A stretch of DNA of 64,000 nucleotides from Escherichia phage vB_EcoM_LNA2. Every line of letters starts with the position of its first letter. Position 1 is the first letter of the stretch. Both the position numbers and the translations under genes were made by a program. A model generated the notes under the pieces. The model searched no databases and was not told the DNA's origin. It worked only from the letters and a program-made list of their open reading frames with translations. The stretch is from sequence record MZ311865.1. The stretch is one strand, 5' to 3'. Positions 2,244-54,571 of this stretch are shown here, in pieces.

Positions 2244-2525
2244 TTACTTATCGCACTTAGCAACATAATTAGGCATATCACAGAATACGGAGCGAGTAAC
2301 TACTCGACCCTTTGACCATGCTTCAGTTGCTTGTCCGGCAGTGCTATTAATATAGCTTGATTTGATATTCTCAATACCCTGAGAATGTGATGCATTTACC
2401 GAACCGTTGGAAGGCCCAGAAGACTGGTTACCACCAGCTCCTGCACTACCGCTGGCTGCACCCGTGGTAGCACCAACAGAGAACGCCATCATTACTGCGA
2501 ATAAACCAATTACTAATTTTTTCAT
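2244..2525 (-). CDS. small exported Gly/Ser-rich protein (93 aa)
   Basis: N-terminal signal-peptide-like segment MKKLVIGLFAVMMAFSVGA followed by a low-complexity G/S/A/N-rich region; hairpin terminator just downstream (2213-2240). Confidence 0.55.
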   Translation of the reverse strand: MKKLVIGLFAVMMAFSVGATTGAASGSAGAGGNQSSGPSNGSVNASHSQGIENIKSSYINSTAGQATEAWSKGRVVTRSVFCDMPNYVAKCDK

Positions 2526-2556
2526 ATTTACCTCAAGTGAATGGTTATTTATCTAT

Positions 2557-3546
2557 TTATTTATAGTAAGAATTATGATTTTCGAGATAGACTTGCTCAA
2601 GGAAATCATCCCAGAAACTCATATCTACTTTTTGTTGCATACCGTTCTTAGCGGCTTGTTCTGATGCTTGTTCAACTTGGTCAACGATATCTTCTAGGAA
2701 TTCTTGTACAGTTTTAAACGTATGTTTACCAAGCTTAACATCGAGAATAAATGGAGCATCCTGAAGCGGGTAAACCAGGTCACCGGTTTTGTAAATTTCC
2801 AATAATTGAAGTCCACCACGACATGCATGACTCAATGCTTTCCAGTCAATACCTTCGTTGGCTTCCGCCTTACGAGCACGTTCACCATAGTTCTCTTCCA
2901 GTTTAACCAGGATGGCATTGAACTCTTTATTGGTTAACGTGTCTTGGAATTTACGGTCCAACAGATTATAGAATGTTTGCTTACCTGTTTTCTCGTTTTC
3001 GGTTTCAACCCATGAAGCAAATTCACCTACAGGCAGAACGTTCTTCATATGTGATAAACGAATTACTGCACCATTATCAAAGTATTGTCCCCATTCATTA
3101 GAACGTTTAAGGGCTTGACGAAGAACAGCCAGTCGAGAACCCTTGACACCATATTTAGAAGCTTGCTTACGGACATACCCTAAATAAGATTTCATGTTAG
3201 TGGTATAGAAACGAGACCTGTTATCTTGAATATACTTCCATACATCAGGCAAATCAGATTTAACTACTAGACTTTGTGGGGTGTGAAGCATATCTAATGC
3301 GACGGTTTCACCATCTGCAGCTAGTTTAAAGAAATATTTGAGACTATACAACTCATGGTCCACGTCGTCTTTTGTGTTCTTAGAAGCAGTGTTGTTAGTG
3401 TTCTTGCTCATGTGTTCTTTAACGTTACCGGTCAAGATATCACGAGCATGAGGGACATAAATTTCTTTAAAATCGACGTCAGATTCAGGAGTAGACGTTC
3501 CATAAAGGTGGCTACCAAAGTAGCCTTTCATAATTGTTTTCATCAT
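2557..3546 (-). CDS. putative nucleotidyltransferase-fold protein (Pol-beta superfamily motif), subfamily unknown
   Basis: N-terminal GSHLYGTSTPESDVDF fits the hG[GS]-x9-13-Dh[DE]h NTase signature; a downstream hhhD strand candidate (TVALDML); start overlaps the stop of the upstream membrane-protein gene (ATGA). Confidence 0.6.
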   Translation of the reverse strand: MMKTIMKGYFGSHLYGTSTPESDVDFKEIYVPHARDILTGNVKEHMSKNTNNTASKNTKDDVDHELYSLKYFFKLAADGETVALDMLHTPQSLVVKSDLPDVWKYIQDNRSRFYTTNMKSYLGYVRKQASKYGVKGSRLAVLRQALKRSNEWGQYFDNGAVIRLSHMKNVLPVGEFASWVETENEKTGKQTFYNLLDRKFQDTLTNKEFNAILVKLEENYGERARKAEANEGIDWKALSHACRGGLQLLEIYKTGDLVYPLQDAPFILDVKLGKHTFKTVQEFLEDIVDQVEQASEQAAKNGMQQKVDMSFWDDFLEQVYLENHNSYYK

Positions 3547-4737: not shown

Positions 4738-4872
4738 TTTACCATACTCGTTTCAATAAGATTCACTATGCCGTTTACCATGTTATAAGTAAACATCGGA
4801 TAATTGTATTGTACTACAACATAAGCGATAAGCAAAAGTTTCATTTTGTTCTCCGTTCGTTTTGATAGGACT

Positions 4873-4902
4873 ACTATAACATAGTCCTATCAAGTTGTAA
4901 AC
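4873..4902 (-). promoter_or_regulatory. T4-type early promoter with -10 embedded in a palindrome
   Basis: Minus strand GTTTAC, 18 bp, TATAGT; the -10 sits inside the inverted repeat ataggactaCTATAACATagtcctat. Confidence 0.6.
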
Positions 4903-5111
4903 TACCGATTGTGTTTTAAATGTTGATAAAGTTCTTCAACTTGTTTAGGGTCCAAAACAATTAAGTCATTTTCTTGACGAAGATAAATCCATCCCTTATC
5001 CCCAGGGCCATTTTTACAAAACATCACCGTCGTCATATCGTCATCTTCAGCGCTTTCAGGTAAAAGTTCAAGTACACCATCTTCAGATTTTCCAGTATAA
5101 TCGTAAAGCAT
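4902..5111 (-). CDS. hypothetical protein (69 aa)
   Basis: Track ORF 4902..5138; internal ATG at 5111 preceded by GAGGAT is preferred. Confidence 0.45.
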   Translation of the reverse strand: MLYDYTGKSEDGVLELLPESAEDDDMTTVMFCKNGPGDKGWIYLRQENDLIVLDPKQVEELYQHLKHNR

Positions 5112-10463: not shown

Positions 10464-10999
10464 TGCATTCCAATCACAAAAAATTGAGGACGAGCATTAC
10501 CGCCGATGCAATATTTGCTTTTGCAACAGTGTTGGACTGTTTTAATATGGACATTGTAAATCTTATCCATATCAGGAGCTTTAATAGGCTCGTCAATTAT
10601 GTACAGAATACGAGAAAGCGTTAATCCACGGAATTTATGTCCTTCATTACCAATAAAACTACGGACAGAATCAGTAAATAAACGGAATCGAATATCATCG
10701 CTAGAATATCGAGAAAATTCTTTTTCAATGTTGCCAGCAGAAATTTTAGCATAAGCTGAAGTATTAGAAAGAACAATAACTGTTCCACCATCATACAGCC
10801 AATTAGCAGCAAAATTAGTTACTGCGGTCGATTTACCTGATTGTCTGCCACCGTCTAAACGAAGTGTACAGTACTGCTTGAGTACGTCTTCAAATGGCGG
10901 GACATAACCGTTCTTACAAATTTCTTCTACTCTAGCATCAGAATGGTGTGTAAAAGCATTCATCAGGGATAGATAAGGACCAGTTAAAAATGTTCTCAT
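10460..10999 (-). CDS. hypothetical P-loop-containing protein (179 aa)
   Basis: Walker-A-like GGRQSGKST in translation. Confidence 0.5.
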   Translation of the reverse strand: MRTFLTGPYLSLMNAFTHHSDARVEEICKNGYVPPFEDVLKQYCTLRLDGGRQSGKSTAVTNFAANWLYDGGTVIVLSNTSAYAKISAGNIEKEFSRYSSDDIRFRLFTDSVRSFIGNEGHKFRGLTLSRILYIIDEPIKAPDMDKIYNVHIKTVQHCCKSKYCIGGNARPQFFVIGMQ

Positions 11000-11172
11000 T
11001 TAGTTTCTCTTAAGGTTGGGGCCATTCCGTGGCACATGTTAGGTCCTTCGACTCGCTATGTAAACCCATTACCGCACTTGGGCTCGACCTTGTTACAGGT
11101 TGGAAAAGGTACATCACTCAGAGGACTCGACGTTCATGAGGAGAGGTTGCGCTTCCCTTTATTAGGCAAGAA

Positions 11173-11502
11173 TTATACTCTAGGCTTTTGAGCTTGTTTG
11201 GTATTGGATTCCCATGCGGCTTTGGTAATTTTGTTAGCGGCATAACCAAAGGCATTAGATAGAACACCTTTAGAGTTGAATACATCCAATCCAATAAGTA
11301 CACCGGCTGTGTTAAATTTAGGAGCAAAGTACGCATTAGTTTTAGAAAGAACTTTTTTCAATTCAGGGTCTTGAACCAAGTCATCAAAAACGCCTTTACT
11401 ATTTACTTTATATGTTACTTTGGGATTTTTACCTTCTTCGATAGCAGCTTTCTGTTCCGCAGATAATGTAACTTCAGTGATAAACTCCTGATATGTTTTC
11501 AT
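11173..11502 (-). CDS. internal-protein-family protein with capsid-targeting leader (109 aa)
   Basis: N-terminus MKTYQEFITE matches the T4 internal-protein capsid targeting sequence (cleaved by the gp21 prohead protease after the Glu). Confidence 0.7.
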   Translation of the reverse strand: MKTYQEFITEVTLSAEQKAAIEEGKNPKVTYKVNSKGVFDDLVQDPELKKVLSKTNAYFAPKFNTAGVLIGLDVFNSKGVLSNAFGYAANKITKAAWESNTKQAQKPRV

Positions 11503-11527
11503 TTTGTTCCTATTGTTTTAATTTATG

Positions 11528-11842
11528 TTATTCTTTAGGGAAGTTTTTAGAGTATGCATCATAAAGTTTATTACCAATACGGCGGAAGACTTTAGCTGCA
11601 AAACGGTTTTCAGGGTTTTTAATCATGATTTGCATCATGTAAGTTCCTGCATCCGAAAGAGCTTCTTCATAGTACCCATTAATTTCTTTAAGAGTCCTAC
11701 GTTTACCGCCAGGACCGTCAACAGTAATTTTCCATTTACCTGTAGAAGTGCGGCTCGGTGGCTCAACTTGTTCAATCCAAATATAACCGCCTTCAACGCG
11801 TTGGTTGGCGGATTCTGCAATAAATTCTTTATACGTTTTCAT
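11528..11842 (-). CDS. internal-protein-family protein with capsid-targeting leader (104 aa)
   Basis: N-terminus MKTYKEFIAE; early promoter at 11874-11903 with a perfect TATAAT. Confidence 0.7.
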   Translation of the reverse strand: MKTYKEFIAESANQRVEGGYIWIEQVEPPSRTSTGKWKITVDGPGGKRRTLKEINGYYEEALSDAGTYMMQIMIKNPENRFAAKVFRRIGNKLYDAYSKNFPKE

Positions 11843-11873
11843 TTTTTGTTTCCTTGTTTGTTTTGATAGAGTA

Positions 11874-11903
11874 ATTATACCATATTAATACTTAAGCGTA
11901 AAC
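11874..11903 (-). promoter_or_regulatory. T4-type early promoter
   Basis: Minus strand GTTTAC, 18 bp, perfect TATAAT; upstream of an internal-protein gene. Confidence 0.65.
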
Positions 11904-11906
11904 AAT

Positions 11907-12167
11907 TTAAGCTTTACCGCCAGAAATAATTCCGAAGTTGTTAAAATCGTATCCAATATCGTCAACATCTACTTTAGGGCTTGCTACAACATAAGCAATT
12001 TCACTACGTTTTGCATAGGTGTTGATTTCTTTACCATCGCCACCTAAGAAAGAATACCCATTACGTTTTAATGAGCCAAAGTCTTCCGCATCACCAATGA
12101 AAGCTTTAACTTTAAATTTAGGACCTTTGGCATCTGCTTCAATGATAAATTCTTGATACATTTTCAT
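11907..12167 (-). CDS. internal-protein-family protein with capsid-targeting leader (86 aa)
   Basis: N-terminus MKMYQEFIIE. Confidence 0.7.
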   Translation of the reverse strand: MKMYQEFIIEADAKGPKFKVKAFIGDAEDFGSLKRNGYSFLGGDGKEINTYAKRSEIAYVVASPKVDVDDIGYDFNNFGIISGGKA

Positions 12168-12173
12168 TTTTCC

Positions 12174-12587
12174 TTAGTAAATTGATTTACCATAGTATTT
12201 GTACCAAGTCGGACGTTGAGCAATTTTTTCATCTAAGCGTGCTTGACTTATCGCAATGGACGCTTCGGACGGGACGTAATTATTACGAAATTCTACAGGA
12301 ATGTCGGAAATATCCTGGACTGTCGTGTCCTTGATTTTGAAACCACGTTTCAAACATTCAGCGATTAGCTCGATTTGACGTAAACGTAAAAATTCGAGTT
12401 TATCGTAAAAGAATGTTACGTGACCTGTGCCTAAGATAAATGTTGGAGAGATTTTAAAATCCTTTACACGTTTACCGTTTTGAACATGTTTACGGACTGC
12501 ACCAAATACGCGTGGTAATTCACGATACTCAGCCATAAGATGTTGGTCGGACAGTTCAGAAACAAGTGTTAAATTGATACGAGTCAT
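12174..12587 (-). CDS. denV: endonuclease V (pyrimidine dimer DNA glycosylase)
   Basis: Translation from the ATG at 12587: [34 protein letters not shown]... closely resembles T4 DenV as recalled; GGAGG RBS. Confidence 0.9.
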
Positions 12588-12614
12588 AATTTCCTCCAAG
12601 TAGTTGATGAATGT

Positions 12615-12644
12615 ATAGTATCAAAACCCCTGGAGGAAGTAAAC
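12615..12644 (-). promoter_or_regulatory. T4-type early promoter (denV)
   Basis: Minus strand GTTTAC, 18 bp, TACTAT. Confidence 0.6.
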
Positions 12645-12645
12645 A

Positions 12646-12927
12646 CTATTTTTCTGAAGCGCCTGAAATATATTTTTCAAGACGTTGTTTCATCAGCGAG
12701 CCGTTCTTAGCGATTTCTTCTGGTTTATCGCACATACGCAACAAGGCTTCAAGCTTAGCGATATCGCTGGTACGTTCAAATTTGCGAGTATCTATCTTAC
12801 TAGCAAGTTCAGAAATACGTGCTAATAGACTTTCAGCTTCAACCAAAGCTGCACCTAGCTTAGTTGCAAATGTGTCAGTAGCTTCGTTAAGAATAGATTC
12901 TGATAAAAATTCACTATATGTTTTCAT
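12646..12927 (-). CDS. internal-protein-family protein with capsid-targeting leader (93 aa)
   Basis: From the ATG at 12927: [10 protein letters not shown]...; its start overlaps the e stop (ATGA). Confidence 0.65.
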
Positions 12928-13412
12928 ATATACGCTTTCCAAGTTCCTGTTTTAAATGTTGAGATTACGCGTTTCGCGCGATTAGGTGTCTGACGATACC
13001 ATTTAGATTGGGCTAGATTTGCTGCCGCTTCATCCCAACGTTTCTGTTTAAGCATACGAAGAGAATTAGTAAAACCGGCGACTCCTGCTACACCCATTTG
13101 GAAGACCATATTGACCAATGCACACCGACGAACTGCATCTAAAGAATCATATACCGGTTTAAGTTTAGCATTACCCAAGATTCCGCGGACGGCTTTATCA
13201 ACGTCTTCATTAAATAGCTTTTCAGCCTCATCAAGGGTAATTGTACCGTTGCATTTACGACCGATCATTCTGTCAAGTTCAGCTTTAGCTACGGCTAAAG
13301 ACGGGTTCTTTGTTACTAAATGGCCTATGCCAATCGTCCAAAAGCCTTCAGTGTCTTTGTATAAAGTCAGTCTAAGACCTTCGTCATTACGAAGCATTTC
13401 AAATATATTCAT
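12924..13412 (-). CDS. e: lysozyme (endolysin), T4 e-type
   Basis: From the ATG at 13412: [32 protein letters not shown]... closely resembles T4 lysozyme as recalled, with catalytic Glu11/Asp20 context conserved; SD sits in a hairpin. Confidence 0.9.
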
Positions 13413-13413
13413 A

Positions 13414-13439
13414 ATACCTCCCACGTTTATAGGAGGTAT
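13414..13439 (-). promoter_or_regulatory. RBS-sequestering hairpin in the e (lysozyme) leader
   Basis: 8-bp inverted repeat atacctcc / ggaggtat with a 10-nt loop; the GGAGG Shine-Dalgarno forms one arm, and the ATG follows 1 nt after the stem. Confidence 0.55.
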
Positions 13440-13446
13440 TTATTAC

Positions 13447-13905
13447 TTATAGGAGGGTAGTGAGCACCTTATATAATGATTTGCCCATTACATATTCCCA
13501 TTGAGAAGGTTTAATTAAAGCGAATGCATCAAATTCAGGAATCTGTCGTCCGTCCGGGAATGTATGATAGGAATTACAAACACTGTTTCTGAATTGCTCG
13601 TGCTCTACAGGGATGGTATATAGGAACAGATGAATATTCTTATTGTCTGAGTAATTATGTTCACCTAGGTCTTTCAGGAAGGCAGGGTCATATTGTGTAA
13701 ACCCAGTTTCTTCTTCGCATTCACGAATAGCGGCTTCGATAGGAGATTCACCCGGCTCGACACGTCCTTTAGGAATATCCCACCGATGAGCTAATGCACC
13801 TTTAGGACGAGAACCAGTTACACGCCCCATGAATAACTCTTTATCTTTTGTCATGAAGATAATACCAGCTGATATCTCTTTCACTTTATTTTTCTTACTC
13901 ATCAT
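13447..13905 (-). CDS. nudE: Nudix hydrolase
   Basis: Nudix box GRVEPGESPIEAAIRECEEETGF in translation; position after e as in T4. Confidence 0.8.
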   Translation of the reverse strand: MMSKKNKVKEISAGIIFMTKDKELFMGRVTGSRPKGALAHRWDIPKGRVEPGESPIEAAIRECEEETGFTQYDPAFLKDLGEHNYSDNKNIHLFLYTIPVEHEQFRNSVCNSYHTFPDGRQIPEFDAFALIKPSQWEYVMGKSLYKVLTTLL

Positions 13906-20691: not shown

Positions 20692-21318
20692 TTACTTACG
20701 AGTTTTTGCATACTGAGCAGCGTCAGCAGCCAAACGACCTGCCTGACGAAGTTTTTCTTTAATCGCATCGTGAAGTGGTTGAGTATACTTCAAACCTTCG
20801 ATAGTCAAATAAAGACGATAAAGGTCTGGGGTATCAAGGTTGTTGATATGTTGGCCATTACGAAGACTGTTGAATTCACGAACGAGTGAAGATGTATCGG
20901 ATTCAATATCACGAACAAGCGAAGATAGTTGTTTATATTTTTTTTCCAGGCTAGAAGTATCAAACTTAAGAGCAGGAGCTTTAGGAGTTGCTTTTACTTC
21001 CGGCTTAGGCTCAGGTTTTGCTATTGCTTTAGGGGTCGCAGGTTTAGGAATGGTAGGAGCAGGTTTTACTTTAGGCGAACCCGATTTAGCAGAAACACCA
21101 CCACTAACAATATCTTTGAATGCTTTAGAAGCTCTGTAATATTCTTTTTGGCTAGAAGTGTCGATACCGTACATGGCTTGAACGTTTTTGAAAAACTCTG
21201 TACTAGTTTTTGTACCAGAAATAGCATCGTAAGCAGCTTGCCATTTCTCTTTTGTCATACGTACGCCGGCTTCGGTGATTACTTCCGTTTCGGCTAAAAA
21301 TTCATTAAAAGTATACAT
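20692..21318 (-). CDS. internal-protein-like protein with capsid-targeting-type leader and Pro/Lys/Ala-rich linker (208 aa)
   Basis: N-terminus MYTFNEFLAETE resembles the MKTYQEFIAE leader; central low-complexity PKVKPAPTIPKPATPKAIAKPEPKPEVKATPKAP. Confidence 0.55.
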   Translation of the reverse strand: MYTFNEFLAETEVITEAGVRMTKEKWQAAYDAISGTKTSTEFFKNVQAMYGIDTSSQKEYYRASKAFKDIVSGGVSAKSGSPKVKPAPTIPKPATPKAIAKPEPKPEVKATPKAPALKFDTSSLEKKYKQLSSLVRDIESDTSSLVREFNSLRNGQHINNLDTPDLYRLYLTIEGLKYTQPLHDAIKEKLRQAGRLAADAAQYAKTRK

Positions 21319-21362
21319 TGATGGTCCTTAGAAAGTAGGTTTATTGTTTACTATATTTATAC

Positions 21363-21392
21363 AAAAAAGCCCCAACCTTTCGGAAGGGGCTA
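21363..21392 (-). terminator. hairpin terminator downstream of the tRNA region
   Basis: Identical 30-mer to 5366-5395. Confidence 0.5.
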
Positions 21393-21440: not shown

Positions 21441-21465
21441 TACGAAACGCCGGGATTCGAACCCG
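21441..21465 (-). pseudogene. tRNA 3'-half remnant (T-arm plus acceptor strand only)
   Basis: Minus strand reads CCGGG-TTCGAAT-CCCGG-CGTTTCG, a canonical T-arm and 3' acceptor strand, but no anticodon or D arm can be folded upstream. Confidence 0.3.
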
Positions 21466-21701
21466 GTTATTAAGCAGTTGACGCTACTCAATATTTTTAA
21501 AAGGCCATATCTCGACCATATCCGAACGTTCCGTCAAAAACGCTACTCGGCTTACGGCAAAGATATTTCCTCGAATCGATAATTCTGTGCGCCGTTTCTG
21601 CTGTGATGTAAGGGGGTATTAACAAATCGTAAAGATTTATTAAGACCAGTCCTTACTCAGGGAACATCAGTCCGACGTCTTGCCGGTAGCGACCCGGCTT
21701 C

Positions 21702-22046
21702 TTATTTTGGCATATCATCAATTTGCTCTCGACGCCGACGCCATAGATTAATCGCTTCATAAACACATTCAGCATTTGGTATATGGCGACAATAGTATAG
21801 TGATTCGCGTTTCTGGAACCGATGTTGTAATGGAATTTCGTTTAAAAGGTCTTTACGGTCAAAGTATTCAAAACTAGTTAACCCGGAACGGTTTTTAAGA
21901 AACTTCCAATGTCCGAATTCATTTTGAAAATAAACGTAATCAGCGTGTTGATATAACGAATTAATCAACCGGTCGGAAATAACTGTATCCTGTTCGTTAA
22001 AATAAAACGTTAAATCATGAACTACCAAATAAATATTGCCTTTCAT
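21702..22046 (-). CDS. hypothetical protein (114 aa) inside the tRNA region
   Basis: Track ORF 21702..22094 would overlap tRNA-Arg; the internal ATG at 22046 preceded by GAGGAAAA (MKGNIYLVVHDL...) is preferred. Confidence 0.45.
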   Translation of the reverse strand: MKGNIYLVVHDLTFYFNEQDTVISDRLINSLYQHADYVYFQNEFGHWKFLKNRSGLTSFEYFDRKDLLNEIPLQHRFQKRESLYYCRHIPNAECVYEAINLWRRRREQIDDMPK

Positions 22047-22064: not shown

Positions 22065-22141
<77 letters not shown>

Positions 22142-22144
22142 GAT

Positions 22145-22219
22145 TGGTGACCCTGGCTGGTTTCGATCCAGCTACCTATCAGTTATGAGCTGACAGCTCT
22201 CCCATTGAGCTACAGGGCC
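22145..22219 (-). tRNA. tRNA with CAT anticodon (Met, or Ile2 if C34 is modified as in T4)
   Basis: Hand-folded cloverleaf: acceptor GGCCCTG/CAGGGTC, D-stem GCTC/GAGC, anticodon stem GTCAG/CTGAT with loop CTCATAA, T-stem GCTGG/CCAGC, encoded CCA; 3 nt from tRNA-Arg. Confidence 0.75.
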
Positions 22220-23725: not shown

Positions 23726-24013
23726 TTACAGAAGAGTTTTTGCAATAATTTTAAGCTGAGCTACAGAAATATGCTTAGCTTTAAACAGTGCAGTCTCTTC
23801 AGCCGGAGAGATAACAATAGTAGCGCCATCTTTCTTAGCAGACCATCCATCCCCTAAGTAAACAGTACCTTTTACTTCTTCACCATCAACCAGACTAATC
23901 ATTGGTTTACCCTCACGTCCTTTATTTGTTTTAATAACTTCAGAAGTAAGGGATGCTTCAGTCAGAGTAGAAACGTTAGCAACAGGTGATATAAATTCTT
24001 TATAGGTTTTCAT
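23726..24013 (-). CDS. ipI: internal protein I-like (capsid-targeted, ejected protein; anti-restriction candidate)
   Basis: N-terminus MKTYKEFISPV capsid-targeting leader; 95 aa; positioned before 57B as T4 ipI; early promoter at 24048-24077. Confidence 0.65.
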   Translation of the reverse strand: MKTYKEFISPVANVSTLTEASLTSEVIKTNKGREGKPMISLVDGEEVKGTVYLGDGWSAKKDGATIVISPAEETALFKAKHISVAQLKIIAKTLL

Positions 24014-24047: not shown

Positions 24048-24077
24048 ATAGTAACACGCCATCATCCTTATGTAAAC
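24048..24077 (-). promoter_or_regulatory. T4-type early promoter (ipI) with a different palindrome
   Basis: GTTTAC, 18 bp, TACTAT; the -10 is flanked by the inverted repeat aggatgat...atcatcct. Confidence 0.6.
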
Positions 24078-50848: not shown

Positions 50849-52420
50849 ATGAAATTTAATATCTTAAGTTTGTTTGCTCCATGGGCAAAAATGGACGAAC
50901 GTGATTACAAAGACCAAGAAAAAGAAAATTTAGAATCTATCACCACACCAAAATTAGACGATGGTGCTAAAGAATACGAAGTATCTGAAAATGAAGCACA
51001 GCAAACATATAATGCTATGTTTCAGAGAATGTTTGGTAGTCAAGAACCAGGGCTCAAATCAACCCGTGAATTAATCGATACGTATCGAAATTTGATGACG
51101 AACTATGAAGTGGATAATGCAGTCTCTGAAATAGTTTCCGATGCTATCGTATATGAAGATGATACAGAAGTCGTTTCTATAAATTTAGACAACACAAAAT
51201 TTAGTCCAAATATAAAATCAATGATGTTGGATGAATTTAACGAAGTGTTGAATCATTTATCTTTCCAACGTAAAGGTTCAGACCATTTTAGACGTTGGTA
51301 CGTAGATTCTCGAATTTTCTTCCATAAAATTATTGACCCTAAACGCCCTAAAGAAGGTATTAAAGAGCTTCGTCGTTTAGACCCACGTCAAGTTCAATAT
51401 GTCCGTGAAGTTATTACAACCACTGAAGCCGGTGTTAAAATAGTCAAGGGTTATAAAGAATATTTCATTTATGACACATCACACGAATCTTATGCTTGTG
51501 ATGGTCGCATATATGAAGCTGGCACAAAAATAAAAATCCCTAAAGCCGCGATTGTTTATGCCCATTCTGGTTTAGTTGATTGTTGTGGTAAAAATATCAT
51601 CGGTTATTTGCATCGGGCTATTAAGCCGGCGAACCAATTAAAACTTCTTGAAGATGCCGTCGTAATTTATCGTATTACTCGTGCTCCTGATCGTCGTGTA
51701 TGGTACGTTGATACAGGTAATATGCCTTCAAGAAAAGCAGCAGAACATATGCAGCATGTTATGAATACGATGAAAAACCGTATTGCATATGATGCTACTA
51801 CAGGCAAGATTAAAAACCAGCAGCATATTATGTCGATGACCGAAGATTATTGGTTACAACGACGTGATGGTAAAGCAGTAACAGAAGTTGACACATTACC
51901 AGGTGCAGATAATACTGGAAATATGGAAGATGTACGTTGGTTCCGTAATGCGCTTTATATGGCTTTACGTATTCCTATTACCCGTATTCCAAGCGACCAA
52001 GGTGGTATACAGTTTGATGCTGGTACTTCTATTACACGAGATGAATTATCATTTGGTAAATTTATTCGTGAGCTGCAACATAAATTTGAAGAGATATTCC
52101 TAGACCCGCTTAAAACTAATTTAATTCTTAAAGGAATTATTACAGAAGATGAGTGGAATGATGAAATAAATAATATTAAGATAAAATTTCATCGGGATAG
52201 TTATTTCTCGGAATTAAAGGATGCTGAGATTCTGGAGCGTCGCATTAATATGCTTCAGATGGCCGAACCATTTATTGGTAAATATATTTCTCACAGAACA
52301 GCTATGAAAGATATTCTTCAGATGTCTGACGAGGAAATTGAACAAGAGGCTAAGCAAATTGAAGAAGAGTCGAAAGAGGCTCGTTTCCAAGACCCCGACC
52401 AAGAACAAGAGGATTTTTAA
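50849..52420 (+). CDS. 20: portal vertex protein gp20
   Basis: 523 aa; late promoter at 50812; followed by the prohead core genes. Confidence 0.9.
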
Positions 52421-52659
52421 TGGACGATTTAATTCAAGCTATTAAATCAAACGACCTCGTTGCTACTCGAAAGTTTTTTGAAAGTGCAATGGCAGAAAAA
52501 ACGGTTCGTTTGATTGAAGCACGCAAAGCAGAAATCGCTTCTCAATTTTTGATTGAAGGCGAAGAACCTGAAGAAGAAGAAAAGAAAGCTAAAGCTTCGG
52601 AAGACGACGCTGATGAAGGCGATGACGACGAAGACGAAGATGATGAGGACGATGAATAA
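52420..52659 (+). CDS. 67: prohead core protein gp67
   Basis: 79 aa with extremely acidic C-terminus ([32 protein letters not shown]). Confidence 0.75.
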
Positions 52660-53084
52660 TGTATCTTATCCCTGAATCTTATGAATTGGTACTCGAAAAT
52701 GTCGAAGCACTTATTCCTGAAGCACAGGGCCGAATCGATGCATTGTCTTCTGCTCTCGATATTGACGATATAAATACTATTATCGAGAACATGCTTGAAA
52801 CTGAAACGGATTTAGCTGTTGCAATGGCTTCCATTATTAATGAAGAACAGTTAAATGAGTTTATCGTTAAACATGTTTCTTCTCGTGGTGAAGTCACCCG
52901 CACTAAAGACCGTAAAACTCGTGAACGTAACGCGTTCCAAACAACCGGACTTTCTAAAGCAAAACGTAGACAAATCGCTCGTAAGGTCGTTAAAGCTAAA
53001 AAAGCTAACCCTTCAGGCCAAGTTAAAGGCCTGCGTAAGCGTAAAAAAGCTCTTAAACGTCGTAAAGCATTAGGATTAAGCTAA
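52659..53084 (+). CDS. 68: prohead core protein gp68
   Basis: 141 aa with basic C-terminus; conserved position. Confidence 0.75.
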
Positions 53085-53725
53085 TGAATAAACCCGAGTT
53101 ACTTATTGAAACTTGGGGTCAACCCGGTGAGATTATTGATGGCGTTCCAATGTTGGAATCTCATGATGGAAAAGATTCTGGCTTAAAACCAGGGCTTTAT
53201 ATAGAAGGTATTTTTCTTCAGGCAGAGGTTGTTAACCGAAATAAACGTTTATATCCTAAACGCGTTTTGGAAAAAGCAGTAAGTGACTATATTAAAGAAC
53301 AAGTCGCAACCAAACAAGCCCTTGGAGAATTAAACCATCCACCTCGCGCAAATGTTGACCCTATGCAAGCCGCTATCATTATTGAAGATATGTGGTGGAA
53401 AGGAAACGATGTATATGGACGCGCTAGAATTATTGAAGGCGACCACGGTCCCGGTGATAAATTAGCTGCTAATATACGAGCTGGTTGGATTCCAGGTGTT
53501 TCCTCTCGTGGTCTTGGTTCTTTAACCGACACCAATAAAGGGTACCGTATCGTGAACGAAGGATTTAAATTAACCGTCGGTGTAGATGCCGTATGGGGGC
53601 CTTCTGCTCCAGATGCTTGGGTTACTCCTAAACAAATATCAGAATCAGAAAATTCGGTGGAAATCACCAAAAACAGTGCTGATGAAGCATTTAAAGCTCT
53701 CGCAGAGAGTTTAAAAGCATTATAA
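53084..53725 (+). CDS. 21: prohead core protease gp21
   Basis: 213 aa; conserved position between 68 and 22. Confidence 0.85.
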   Translation: MNKPELLIETWGQPGEIIDGVPMLESHDGKDSGLKPGLYIEGIFLQAEVVNRNKRLYPKRVLEKAVSDYIKEQVATKQALGELNHPPRANVDPMQAAIIIEDMWWKGNDVYGRARIIEGDHGPGDKLAANIRAGWIPGVSSRGLGSLTDTNKGYRIVNEGFKLTVGVDAVWGPSAPDAWVTPKQISESENSVEITKNSADEAFKALAESLKAL

Positions 53726-53728
53726 ATA
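53721..53728 (+). promoter_or_regulatory. late promoter for gene 22
   Basis: Exact TATAAATA at the gp21 stop. Confidence 0.6.
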
Positions 53729-53758
53729 ATAATGTAATCTAAACCACAGGACACTAAA

Positions 53759-54571
53759 ATGATCAAAGAACAACTTTTGAAAGAAGCTCAGAATATCGAG
53801 ACTTCAGTTGCTCTTAATAGTGTTTTCGAATCAGTAGAACTGTCTCCGGACGTTAAAGCTAATTTCAGCACTGTATTCGAAGCCACCGTTAAGCAGGAAG
53901 CAGTCAAACTAGCTGAATCTCATATCAAAGCTATCGCCGAAAAAGCCGAAGAAGAAGTTGAAAAGGCTAAAGAAGATGCTGAAGAGAAAGCTGATAAAAA
54001 ATTGGCTGAACAAGCTTCTAAATTCCTAGACCATCTTGCAAAAGAATGGCTCGCAGAAAACCAAATCGCAGTTGATAAAGGCATTAAAGCTGATTTGTTC
54101 GAATCCATGCTTGGTGGTCTGAAAGAACTGTTTGTTGAACATAACGTTGTTGTTCCAGAAGAATCTGTAGATGTTGTAGCAGAAATGGAAGAAGAGCTGG
54201 CCGAACATAAAGAAGAAACCGCTCGTTTGTTCGAAGAAGTTACCAAACGTGATGCATATATCAATTACGTTCAGCGTGAAACCGCTATTAATGAAAGCGT
54301 AAAAGACCTGACTGAATCTCAGAAAGAAAAAGTTATTGGCCTGGTTGAAGGTATGGATTATTCTGACGCATTTGGTACTAAGTTAACTGCTATTGTAGAA
54401 ATGGTTAAAGGTTCTACTAAAGAAGAAGCCGCTATTACCGAAAGTATAAATACAGTTGACAATGACGCTGCCGGTCTTAATTTTGTTGCCGAAGCAGTTG
54501 ACACTACCACAACTCAGGTAGAACAGAATTCTAATGTAAGTTTATATGCGAAAGTCGCATCTCGTTTCTAA
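53759..54571 (+). CDS. 22: prohead core scaffolding protein gp22
   Basis: 270 aa acidic coiled-coil protein; late promoter at 53721. Confidence 0.85.
   Translation: MIKEQLLKEAQNIETSVALNSVFESVELSPDVKANFSTVFEATVKQEAVKLAESHIKAIAEKAEEEVEKAKEDAEEKADKKLAEQASKFLDHLAKEWLAENQIAVDKGIKADLFESMLGGLKELFVEHNVVVPEESVDVVAEMEEELAEHKEETARLFEEVTKRDAYINYVQRETAINESVKDLTESQKEKVIGLVEGMDYSDAFGTKLTAIVEMVKGSTKEEAAITESINTVDNDAAGLNFVAEAVDTTTTQVEQNSNVSLYAKVASRF

Follow-up and report, generated by a model that had tools for sequence, protein, structure and literature searches.

Six genes with T4-type internal-protein leaders in a Mosigvirus genome

The diversity of the internal proteins (IPs) of the T-even phages was reportedly published by Repoila in 1994, and the three IPs of T4 are said to have been paired with three different GmrSD enzymes only in the years 2007 to 2025. 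For Ip4 to Ip10 and the later variants, the sources are Repoila 1994 and Comeau 2007, together with the GenBank entries for ip5, ip7 and ip10 of T6, VR7/VR25 and SP18. More than 30 IP variants are known (PMC2839356), and the IPs have been described as a diverse defence set of which the N-terminal leader, the CTS, is the sole shared part (PMC3012670). In T4 the CTS is both necessary and sufficient for packaging, and its critical residues are 4 and 7 (Y/F and F), which matter in targeting, and 8 and 10 (I/L and E), which matter in processing (PMC9026906). Each of T4 Ip1, Ip2 and Ip3 is an inhibitor of its own, different GmrSD enzyme (PMC12373910), and plasmid-borne IPIII remains active when its CTS is missing (PMC9391042).

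We report the analysis of a stretch of 64,000 nucleotides from Escherichia phage vB_EcoM_LNA2 (MZ311865.1), referred to below as the window, which is that of an RB69-like Mosigvirus with 98.8% identity to phage APCEc01. A sequence-only reading of this DNA had claimed six leader-bearing genes, and all six ORFs were found, on the minus strand, where that reading had placed them (Table 1). One of them exists as a TTG-extended ORF at 12646-12942, which accounts for the end coordinate 12942 given there; the true start is the ATG at 12927, as annotated in APCEc01 and RB69. We put at roughly 0.8 the probability that the six genes encode T4-type IPs which are packaged, processed by gp21 and ejected, each blocking a host nuclease. 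The phenomenon is an established one and not new, the gene class having been known since 1994, and neither is the general principle of injected internal proteins; the novelty that is left is small and lies in the 109-aa (RB69ORF123c) and 208-aa families, which are 'hypothetical' among the records listed.

Table 1. Positions of the leader-bearing genes, promoters and prohead genes in the window
Feature	Position	Strand	Leader, predicted cleavage site or promoter motif	Basis
109-aa CTS gene	11173-11502	-	MKTYQEFITE/V; ITE/V	orthologue of RB69ORF123c, 96% identity
104-aa Ip10-family gene	11528-11842	-	MKTYKEFIAE/S; IAE/S	73% identity to VR25 ip10
T4 early-type promoter, upstream of Ip10 gene	11874-11903	-	GTTTAC-N17-TATAAT	
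86-aa internal head protein gene	11907-12167	-	MKMYQEFIIE/A; IIE/A	phrog_2667 'internal head protein', E = 7e-21
93-aa Ip5-family gene	12646-12927	-	LSE/S and LNE/A	phrog_3499 'internal head protein', E = 2e-46
208-aa candidate internal protein gene	20692-21318	-	MYTFNEFLAE/TEVITE/A; LAE/T and ITE/A	leader and second cleavage motif
Terminator-like GC hairpin and T-run, then perfect T4 late promoter (21354-21361)	21354-21392	-	TATAAATA	
ipI	23726-24013	-	LTE/A	Pfam IPI_T4 residues 20-95, E = 2.6e-49; PDB 2JUB residues 20-95
T4 early-type promoter, upstream of ipI	24048-24077	-	GTTTAC-N17-TACTAT	
Prohead core and processing machinery	52420-54571	+		Pfam GP67, Peptidase_S77 (E = 3e-107), T4_CASP
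gp67	52420-52659	+		Pfam GP67
gp68	52659-53084	+		ORF at gp68 position
gp21 protease	53084-53725	+		Pfam Peptidase_S77, E = 3e-107
gp22 scaffold	53759-54571	+		Pfam T4_CASP

Leaders, predicted cleavage sites and prohead machinery

The leaders of the six ORFs follow the consensus M-[K/Y]-[T/M]-[Y/F]-x-E-F-[I/L]-x-[E/P], and all six are of the CTS form MKTYxEF(I/L)xE, in which position 4 is aromatic and position 7 is Phe. A six-frame scan of the window with the pattern M..[YF].EF[ILVM].[EDP] gave exactly six matches, all of them these ORFs; 200 first-order Markov sequences simulated from the window held 0.005 matches on average and 1 at most. Each of the six lies 2-16 codons past an in-frame stop and has a Shine-Dalgarno-like GGA/AGGA ahead of it. 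In every family the orthologues retain the leader, even at identities as low as 34-47%; the losses seen in RB69, of Glu10 in ORF123c and of residues 5-10 in the Ip5 homologue, imply that details of processing differ between strains and that a given copy could be decaying.

Sites of the form (L/I)-x-E occur at residue 10, 15, 16 or 19 in all six proteins, and at the level of the motif each protein has a putative gp21-type site, in which such a triplet is followed by a small residue within the first ~10-20 residues. The window's own maturation sites are of the same kind, LTE/A at 64-66 in gp23 and LRE/S at 8-10 in gp24. The suggestion that gp21 removes a leader of about 10 residues agrees with the presence of predicted sites in all six proteins, but the predicted cut does not always follow residue 10. 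IPI is predicted to be cut after Glu19, since Pfam IPI_T4 and PDB 2JUB both match from the next residue on. For Ip5 the probable cut is at LNE/A (residue 15), a conserved motif that survives drift of residues 5-10 such as that seen in RB69; for the 208-aa protein the probable site is ITE/A (residue 16), likewise conserved. The gp21 protease and the gp22/gp67/gp68 core that CTS proteins require are encoded within the window. With a leader of the T4 CTS type, cleavage motifs and the prohead machinery all present, the earlier interpretation of these genes as internal-protein genes was upheld.

We infer that the six products are probably head cargo, injected together with the DNA. In the mechanism that we propose, the short N-terminal CTS would bind the gp22/gp67/gp68 scaffolding core during prohead assembly and gp21 would then cut after the Glu of (L/I)-x-E, 10 to 19 residues in, freeing a small, mostly basic mature protein within the capsid; at infection this protein would exit with the DNA and act in the cytoplasm before phage gene expression. 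Each mature domain would most likely block one specific first-line host nuclease, as T4 Ip1, Ip2 and Ip3 do, and the best candidates for the targets are type IV restriction enzymes of the GmrSD/BrxU type, whose substrate is DNA with sugar-modified hydroxymethylcytosine, although for the five non-IPI proteins it is by analogy that GmrSD-type inhibition appears most likely. Mosigvirus DNA is arabinosylated, not glucosylated, so the relevant host enzymes may differ from those facing T4. Virion proteomics for these proteins was sought in the literature on Mosigvirus, JS98 and fHe-Yen9-01 and none was found.

Mature domains and gene families

The mature parts, unlike the leaders, had been described as unrelated to one another, and this agrees with our comparison, in which BLASTP of the paralogues from residue 11 on gave no match with E < 0.1. 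Paralogy of the 109-aa and 104-aa proteins, which both match phrog_3966, was considered and dropped: with the leaders removed, BLASTP returned nothing and an hhalign profile comparison of the two families gave a 0.2% probability of relationship. It is probably the leader that holds phrog_3966 together. Membership of the IPI family (Pfam PF11634) is confined to ipI, which adjoins 57B, as in T4, and whose product consists of a 19-residue propeptide (MKTYKEFISPVANVSTLTE/A) and a 76-aa IPI* domain; its mature part is 91% identical to T4 IPI and it is thus a true orthologue. The remaining five mature domains have no sequence relationship to any T4 IP, BLASTP found no homologue of IPII or IPIII in this phage, and a Pfam search with the five proteins gave nothing above threshold. 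Pfam and PDB searches, with Foldseek for the 208-aa model, gave no fold or family indicating function for any mature domain except IPI*. Four of the six mature proteins have a predicted pI of 9-9.9; the two that are not basic are the 86-aa protein and Ip5.

Named families (IPI, Ip5, Ip10 and 'internal head protein') cover four of the six CTS genes, and the 109-aa and 208-aa genes are still without annotation as internal proteins. The 109-aa protein (~10.7 kDa and pI 9.6 in its predicted mature form) belongs to a phrog of 'unknown function', is 'hypothetical' among the records listed and has a Dhakavirus homologue, WG01_115, at 36% identity with the start MKTYQQFITES. One record labels a homologue 'RNA polymerase ADP-ribosylase', which is a mislabel. 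The 104-aa protein (predicted mature form ~10.8 kDa, pI 9.6) falls in UniRef/NCBI clusters named 'Ip10' ('Ip10 [Shigella phage SP18]') and 'IpII internal head protein', and its Tequatrovirus counterparts in teqhal and slur11 are 96% identical to it, a match across genera; its structure model is poor (pLDDT 49). The 86-aa gene directly follows the denV stop codon, and its product (predicted mature form ~8.1 kDa, pI 6.4) is annotated 'internal head protein' in APCEc01, a20 and RB69 and has 74% identity to VR25 gp125. The 93-aa gene starts with an ATG that shares bases with the stop of gene e (ATGA). Its product is 88% identical to VR25 ip5, annotated 'similar to T6 Ip5', and this identity, with that of the 104-aa protein to VR25 Ip10, places the two in the Ip5 and Ip10 families. 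Early promoters similar to that of the Ip10 gene stand ahead of T4 ipI, ipII and ipIII and of the window's denV and ipI.

We also observed a conserved RNA-like element at 11061-11107, which 1074 phage records carry. The 173-nt vs.8-proximal spacer has no Rfam match at E up to 1, and its interpretation as a coding remnant was rejected, since the conserved blocks do not share a reading frame between T4 and the window.

The leader of the 208-aa protein (predicted mature form ~21 kDa, pI 9.7) departs from the consensus in this phage at positions 2 (Y) and 4 (F); F4 is also found in T4 IPI, and 208-aa orthologues carry the canonical MKTYNEFLNES. Orthologues at 34-47% identity keep both M-x-x-[YF]-x-[EDQ]-F-[IL]-x-E and (I/L)-[TS]-E-A, with F7 and E16 invariant in a nine-sequence alignment. 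The late promoter lies 35 nt upstream of the gene, which fits a head component, and the Dhakavirus (L053) and Karamvirus PG7 orthologues have the same conserved arrangement of hairpin and TATAAATA upstream. Across genera the family retains its leader, second cleavage site and own late promoter. The gene is 'hypothetical' among the matches listed (143 records matched) and falls in phrog_2280, of 'unknown function'; the records and papers that could be searched did not name the family as an internal protein. An AlphaFold model (pLDDT 71) suggests a helical N-domain, a disordered Pro/Lys/Ala linker and a helical C-domain; with this model Foldseek against BFVD returned orthologues only, and a PDB sequence search returned nothing. 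The protein is about the size of IPIII, and its gene forms a unit of terminator and late promoter directly downstream of the tRNA/rnaC/rnaD cluster. Equivalence to IPIII was rejected, there being no sequence similarity; Dhakaviruses carry both proteins, so the 208-aa protein is not a replacement for IPIII. Possible, if too tentative to be called probable, is the joint proposal that the 208-aa protein is an unrecognised conserved internal head protein, marking a third non-T4 Tevenvirinae IP locus, and that the Mosigvirus IP set, the 109-aa protein included, comprises injected inhibitors tuned to host nucleases with arabinosyl-hmC DNA as their substrate.

Alternative roles for the leader and the proteins

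A shared start could also arise at the DNA level, from a duplicated translation-initiation cassette (the RBS and the first codons) whose peptide has no function. Conserved promoter and stem-loop elements at IP loci could drive such shuffling, following Repoila et al. and Arbiol et al. (PMC2839356), and the 30 nt of leader DNA are indeed 72% identical on average among the six genes. The 40 nt upstream, however, RBS included, are at a background level of 36% and the 30 nt downstream at 28%, so that conservation stops sharply at codon 10, and within the leader the codons vary (ACA/ACG/ACT/ACC for Thr3, ATC/ATT/ATA for Ile8, GAA/GAG for Glu6) while the peptide is conserved. Conservation therefore acts on the peptide; the codon usage and flank identity rule out a shared RBS-start cassette, and the nucleotide-level duplication that the sequence-only reading had named as its own refutation was not what the alignment of the leaders gave. 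Given also that orthologues of 34-47% identity retain the leader and that CTS function is experimentally established in T4 (PMC9026906), we hold a functionless peptide to be extremely improbable.

It is quite unlikely, too, that some of the six, above all the 109-aa and 208-aa proteins, are cytoplasmic early or late proteins which inherited the leader by recombination and do not enter proheads: although neither is annotated as an internal protein among the records listed, Glu10 is lost in the RB69 copy of the former and the leader of the latter deviates at two positions, purifying selection acts across genera on both the leaders and the cleavage motifs, where a chance relic would decay, and the late promoter of the 208-aa gene speaks for the head. 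The proteins might instead be packaged and yet mainly serve the virion, through neutralisation of DNA charge or assembly of the core and head, as suggested for T4 IPIII. T4 IPs were long thought to be DNA-binding and IPIII mutants are slower in head assembly (PMC9026906), the basic pI of four of the mature proteins points the same way, and the 208-aa family is found in many genera, is late-expressed by its promoter and, in its model, has a linker and coiled-coil-like helices that look more structural than arms-race-like. We nevertheless regard a mainly virion-serving role as rather doubtful, for T4 without all three IPs is viable (PMC9026906), specific nuclease targets are now described for all three (PMC12373910), and among close relatives the small IP genes undergo exchange, loss and replacement, as fits adaptive accessory genes. 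The reading that we prefer remains that of injected proteins directed against host nucleases.

Comparison with known systems

Three variable loci hold CTS genes as exchangeable cassettes, namely vs.8-denV, denV-e and the region from the tRNA/stable-RNA cluster to 57B, and the same slots carry different CTS genes in RB69, VR25, WG01, Kosakonia phage 305, KaAlpha and teqhal; the genes thus combine a conserved leader and a hypervariable mature domain with exchangeable loci. WG01 has four CTS genes around denV, and teqhal, a Tequatrovirus and hence of T4's own genus, has Ip10 and Ip4 between denV and vs.8. That T4 has no IP genes between vs.8 and denV, as had been stated, is borne out by a gap of only 26 nt there. 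The further claim that this phage carries more cargo than T4 stands as far as its six candidates go, but such a set is usual for the subfamily, as VR25, WG01 and teqhal demonstrate.

Injected IPs, acting before phage gene expression, help to decide which wild strains are open to a therapeutic or model T-even phage, and screens for anti-restriction activity could draw on the Ip5, Ip10, 86-aa, 109-aa and 208-aa families as concrete candidates. The annotation of some 90 and 140 phage genomes, respectively, would improve if RB69ORF123c-like and 208-aa-like proteins were marked as probable virion cargo.

The proposed route through the head resembles that of T4 Alt, a CTS-like cargo that enters by way of the prohead core, is shortened by gp21 and leaves by ejection (PMC9026906), although Alt is a large ADP-ribosyltransferase with a different propeptide. 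P1 Dar, the T7 internal core and the phiKZ/SPN3US ejection proteins are likewise head-internal and DNA-delivered, some of them anti-restriction, and the SPN3US proteins also have propeptides removed by a protease, but these proteins and their targeting signals are unrelated and lack the MKTYxEF leader. With the T4 IPs the present genes share the CTS leader, the gp21-type motif, the neighbourhoods (denV-e and beside 57B), a small and mostly basic product and, for most of them, early-type promoters; they differ from them in the lack of an IPII or IPIII homologue, in five unrelated mature domains and in the three genes between vs.8 and denV. The likeness to Ip4-Ip10 and the later T-even variants is closer, with Ip5 and Ip10 of the same families and an arrangement, vs.8 / ip / ip / ip10 / denV / ip5 / e, identical to that already annotated in VR25 with its named ip7, ip10 and ip5, except that the slot beside vs.8, which holds Ip7 in VR25, is occupied here by the unrelated 109-aa protein.

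The predicted capsid-targeting leader and its six genes

The sequence-only reading had placed a shared capsid-targeting leader (CTS) of the MKTYxEFIxE type, degenerate in one case, at the starts of six genes, and the open reading frames, read on the minus strand at their coordinates (see table), begin as it described. A six-frame scan of the window with M..[YF].EF[ILVM].[EDP] returned only six matches, each the start of one of these same ORFs and preceded by a Shine-Dalgarno-like sequence, against an average of 0.005 matches in simulated sequences; a looser pattern over the window yielded no additional plausible gene. The possibility that the leaders are duplicates of one ribosome-binding-site and start cassette is rejected, as DNA identity between paralogues is 72% in the leader, 36% in the 40 nt upstream and 28% in the next 30 nt, and synonymous codons vary (all four for Thr3, three for Ile8, two for Glu6). 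The mature parts, described as unrelated, have no similarity to one another; the sole hint of paralogy, a match of both the 109-aa and the 104-aa protein to phrog_3966, was rejected by hhalign without the leaders (0.2% probability). The observation of six leader-bearing genes is confirmed and their interpretation as internal proteins (IPs) is supported.

Coordinates of the IP candidates and of neighbouring or homologous features
Feature	Location	Strand	Basis or remark
109-aa gene	window 11173-11502	minus	CTS-type leader
Ip10 (104-aa)	window 11528-11842	minus	CTS-type leader
86-aa gene	window 11907-12167	minus	CTS-type leader
Ip5	window 12646-12927	minus	CTS-type leader
208-aa gene	window 20692-21318	minus	CTS-type leader
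ipI	window 23726-24013	minus	CTS-type leader
rnaC homologue	window 21441-21579	minus	98.6% identity to T4 stable RNA
rnaD homologue	window 21587-21705	minus	86.7% identity to T4 stable RNA
RNA-like element core	window 11061-11107, inside spacer 11000-11172	minus	conservation and covariation
RB69 IP copies with decay or drift	RB69 (L004) 1076-1357, 2160-2432, 2501-2830		comparison with window

Four of the genes have named relatives. Both Pfam IPI_T4 and the solved IPI* structure 2JUB match residues 20-95 of IPI, whose mature part is 91% identical to that of T4. Ip5 is 88% identical to VR25 ip5 (annotated 'similar to T6 Ip5') and matches phrog_3499; Ip10 is 73% identical to VR25 ip10, its public cluster names being 'Ip10 [Shigella phage SP18]' and 'IpII internal head protein'. 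The 86-aa protein, encoded directly after denV, belongs to phrog_2667 and is already an 'internal head protein' in APCEc01, a20 and RB69. The 109-aa protein corresponds to RB69ORF123c, with matches in 90 phage records, those listed being 'hypothetical' apart from two evident mislabels, and its Dhakavirus homologue (36% identity) has the same kind of start, MKTYQQFITES. The IP principle is old and the phenomenon textbook for this phage subfamily. The novelty left is modest: the 109-aa and 208-aa families can be proposed, from their sequences, as internal proteins, a label seen for neither among the matched records listed. Of the two, the 208-aa family holds more interest, being conserved across many genera, with its own late promoter and at a third locus.

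In the window the 208-aa gene (MYTFNEFLAE) is the least certain IP member, and comparison strengthens its candidacy. Of the 143 records matched, all those listed are 'hypothetical', and phrog_2280, which it matches, is of 'unknown function'. Orthologues of 47-71% identity start MKTYNEFLNES, MLKFKEF, MLNFNEFITES or MLQYNEFLKES and have in common a further motif, (I/L)-(T/S)-E-A, near residues 14-17, with F7 and E16 invariant; that of Karamvirus PG7 (34% identity) starts MLNFKEFITES...ITEAG. Phe at position 4 is found in T4 IPI too. A perfect late promoter, TATAAATA, directly behind a GC hairpin and T-run, stands 35 nt upstream of the gene, and this unit is kept in Dhakavirus and Karamvirus. The predicted mature product (~21 kDa, pI 9.7) is similar to T4 IPIII in size and charge but unrelated in sequence. 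In its AlphaFold model (pLDDT 71) the leader is disordered, and two helical parts, a small domain and then the C-terminal domain, are joined by a Pro/Lys/Ala linker that is likewise disordered; a fold search with the model found orthologues only. The rnaC and rnaD homologues, which have no family in Rfam, lie just upstream of this gene and just downstream of tRNA-Arg/tRNA-Met (22065-22219); small ORFs called over them (e.g. 21497-21625) are probably spurious.

Processing, expression and function

Among the window's genes are those for gp21, the prohead protease (Peptidase_S77), for gp22, the scaffold, and for gp67, with an ORF in the gp68 position; its gp23 carries LTE/A and its gp24 LRE/S, where the slash marks the predicted cut, at the positions where the T4 proteins are cut. 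As a sequence motif, a similar site occurs in the first 10-19 residues of each IP candidate. The removal of roughly ten residues, as had been supposed, does not fit IPI and probably does not fit Ip5. The predicted IPI propeptide is of 19 residues ending LTE/A, not 10, because the IPI_T4 and 2JUB matches begin at residue 20, and Ip5 is probably cut after residue 15, since LNE/A at 13-15 is kept in both RB69 and VR25, where residues 5-10 have drifted. In T4 IPIII the first ten residues are enough for packaging, residues 4 and 7 counting in targeting and 8 and 10 in processing (PMC9026906); these positions are kept in all six leaders with the exception of Glu10 of IPI, which has the downstream site instead.

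Expression signals are alike in T4 and the window, early-type promoters (GTTTAC-N17-TAnnnT) standing upstream of Ip10, denV and ipI in the window and of ipI, ipII and ipIII in T4. The e stop codon shares bases with the ip5 start codon in an ATGA overlap (window 12924-12927), which implies a putative translational coupling of the internal protein Ip5 to the endolysin gene. In T4, IPI* blocks GmrSD (PMC3012670), two further GmrSD variants are blocked by Ip2 and Ip3 without cross-protection (PMC12373910), and IPIII lacking its CTS is active in the cytoplasm (PMC9391042); the function presumed for the window's IPs rests, by analogy, on T4.

In uncultivated phages, an exact-pattern scan of IMG/VR (MKTYxEF[ILM]xE; matches listed as loci L009-L128, e.g. 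L010:235 and L063:3967) found the CTS-like leader pattern in front of mature domains that form at least 63 unrelated clusters by sequence. The largest among the matches listed (at least 25 members, ~165 aa, MKTYKEFMQES...) matches the S-AdoMet_lyase family (PF23780, E = 1.4e-15); phage T3 uses an enzyme of the S-adenosylmethionine lyase type against restriction. Another cluster, L074 (358 aa), matches DUF6267 and has a KWDG motif.

A conserved RNA-like element beside vs.8

Between the 109-aa gene, the last of the IP genes, and vs.8 lies a 173-nt spacer with G+C above its surroundings, holding an RNA-like element whose DNA sequence is conserved across 1074 phage records. The 34-nt core, ACCTGTAA-N-AAGGTCG-R-GCC-NN-AG-N-GCGGTAA-N-G (as RNA, ACCUGUAANAAGGUCGRGCCNNAGNGCGGUAANG), is invariant in 23 diverse copies, and copies occur in T4-like genera and unrelated phages (137-kb rV5-like; 44-47-kb). 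Base pairs covary in the stem that closes the core (AU/UA/CG/GC/UG, CG/GC/UA, CG/GC), with a score of 0.261 against 0.069 +/- 0.021 when shuffled (0 of 500 shuffles as high), and an upstream stem covaries as well. A search with a covariance model turned up a copy whose first inner hairpin carries a compensatory change, and a divergent one whose second hairpin differs; by its G-U wobble pairs, the early-gene strand is favoured.

In T4 the element falls inside the first 40 codons of annotated vs.8, and a coding role is rejected since the reading frames of its conserved blocks differ between T4 and the window. The T4 ORF (219 aa) runs 40 codons upstream over the element (T4 64785-64912, or 4786-4913 of locus L003; window 10999), and vs.8 of the window, RB69 and others starts at the equivalent of T4 Met41. 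Because the upstream blocks lie in other frames, the annotated T4 start is probably over-extended and the true start Met41. The rV5-like and 46-kb phages carry the element on the strand of a tRNA cluster that follows 250-600 nt downstream. It had no match in Rfam or in E. coli genomes, its exact core none in 185,579 species genomes (GTDB), and its sequence string none in a literature search; it resembles a structured RNA or regulatory element, not yet described, of virulent enterobacterial phages.

Related phages and the exchange of IP cassettes

Escherichia phage APCEc01 is 98.8% identical over window 10900-13500, the other related matches belonging to the genus Mosigvirus, RB69 among its members. 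The minus strand follows a T4-like order (vs.6/vs.7/vs.8, denV, e, nudE, e.x genes, stable RNAs and tRNAs, ipI, 57B, 57A, gene 1), and genes 20, 67, 68, 21, 22, 23 and 24 lie farther along on the plus strand. In RB69 the Ip10 homologue ORF124c differs at its C-terminus and is shorter (90 aa; 104 aa in the window), the ORF123c leader is without Glu10, and the Ip5 leader has drifted to MKTYMNFYQN with LNE/A retained.

IP cassettes are exchanged, since Ip10 is near-identical across genera and the occupants of the vs.8-proximal slot differ (the 109-aa protein in the window, Ip7 in VR25, another protein in WG01); Ip10 points to recent exchange between Mosigvirus and Tequatrovirus. The window's exact layout is annotated in VR25, as vs.8 / ip7 / IP / ip10 / denV / ip5 / e, denV of WG01 has four CTS genes around it, one an IPIII homologue, and relatives of Ip10 occupy other slots in Kosakonia phage 305 and KaAlpha. 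The remark that T4 has no IP genes between vs and denV is true of T4 itself and fails for its genus: in Tequatrovirus teqhal, Ip10 (teqhal/slur11, L156 2201-2518; 96% protein identity to that of the window) adjoins Ip4 between denV and vs.8.
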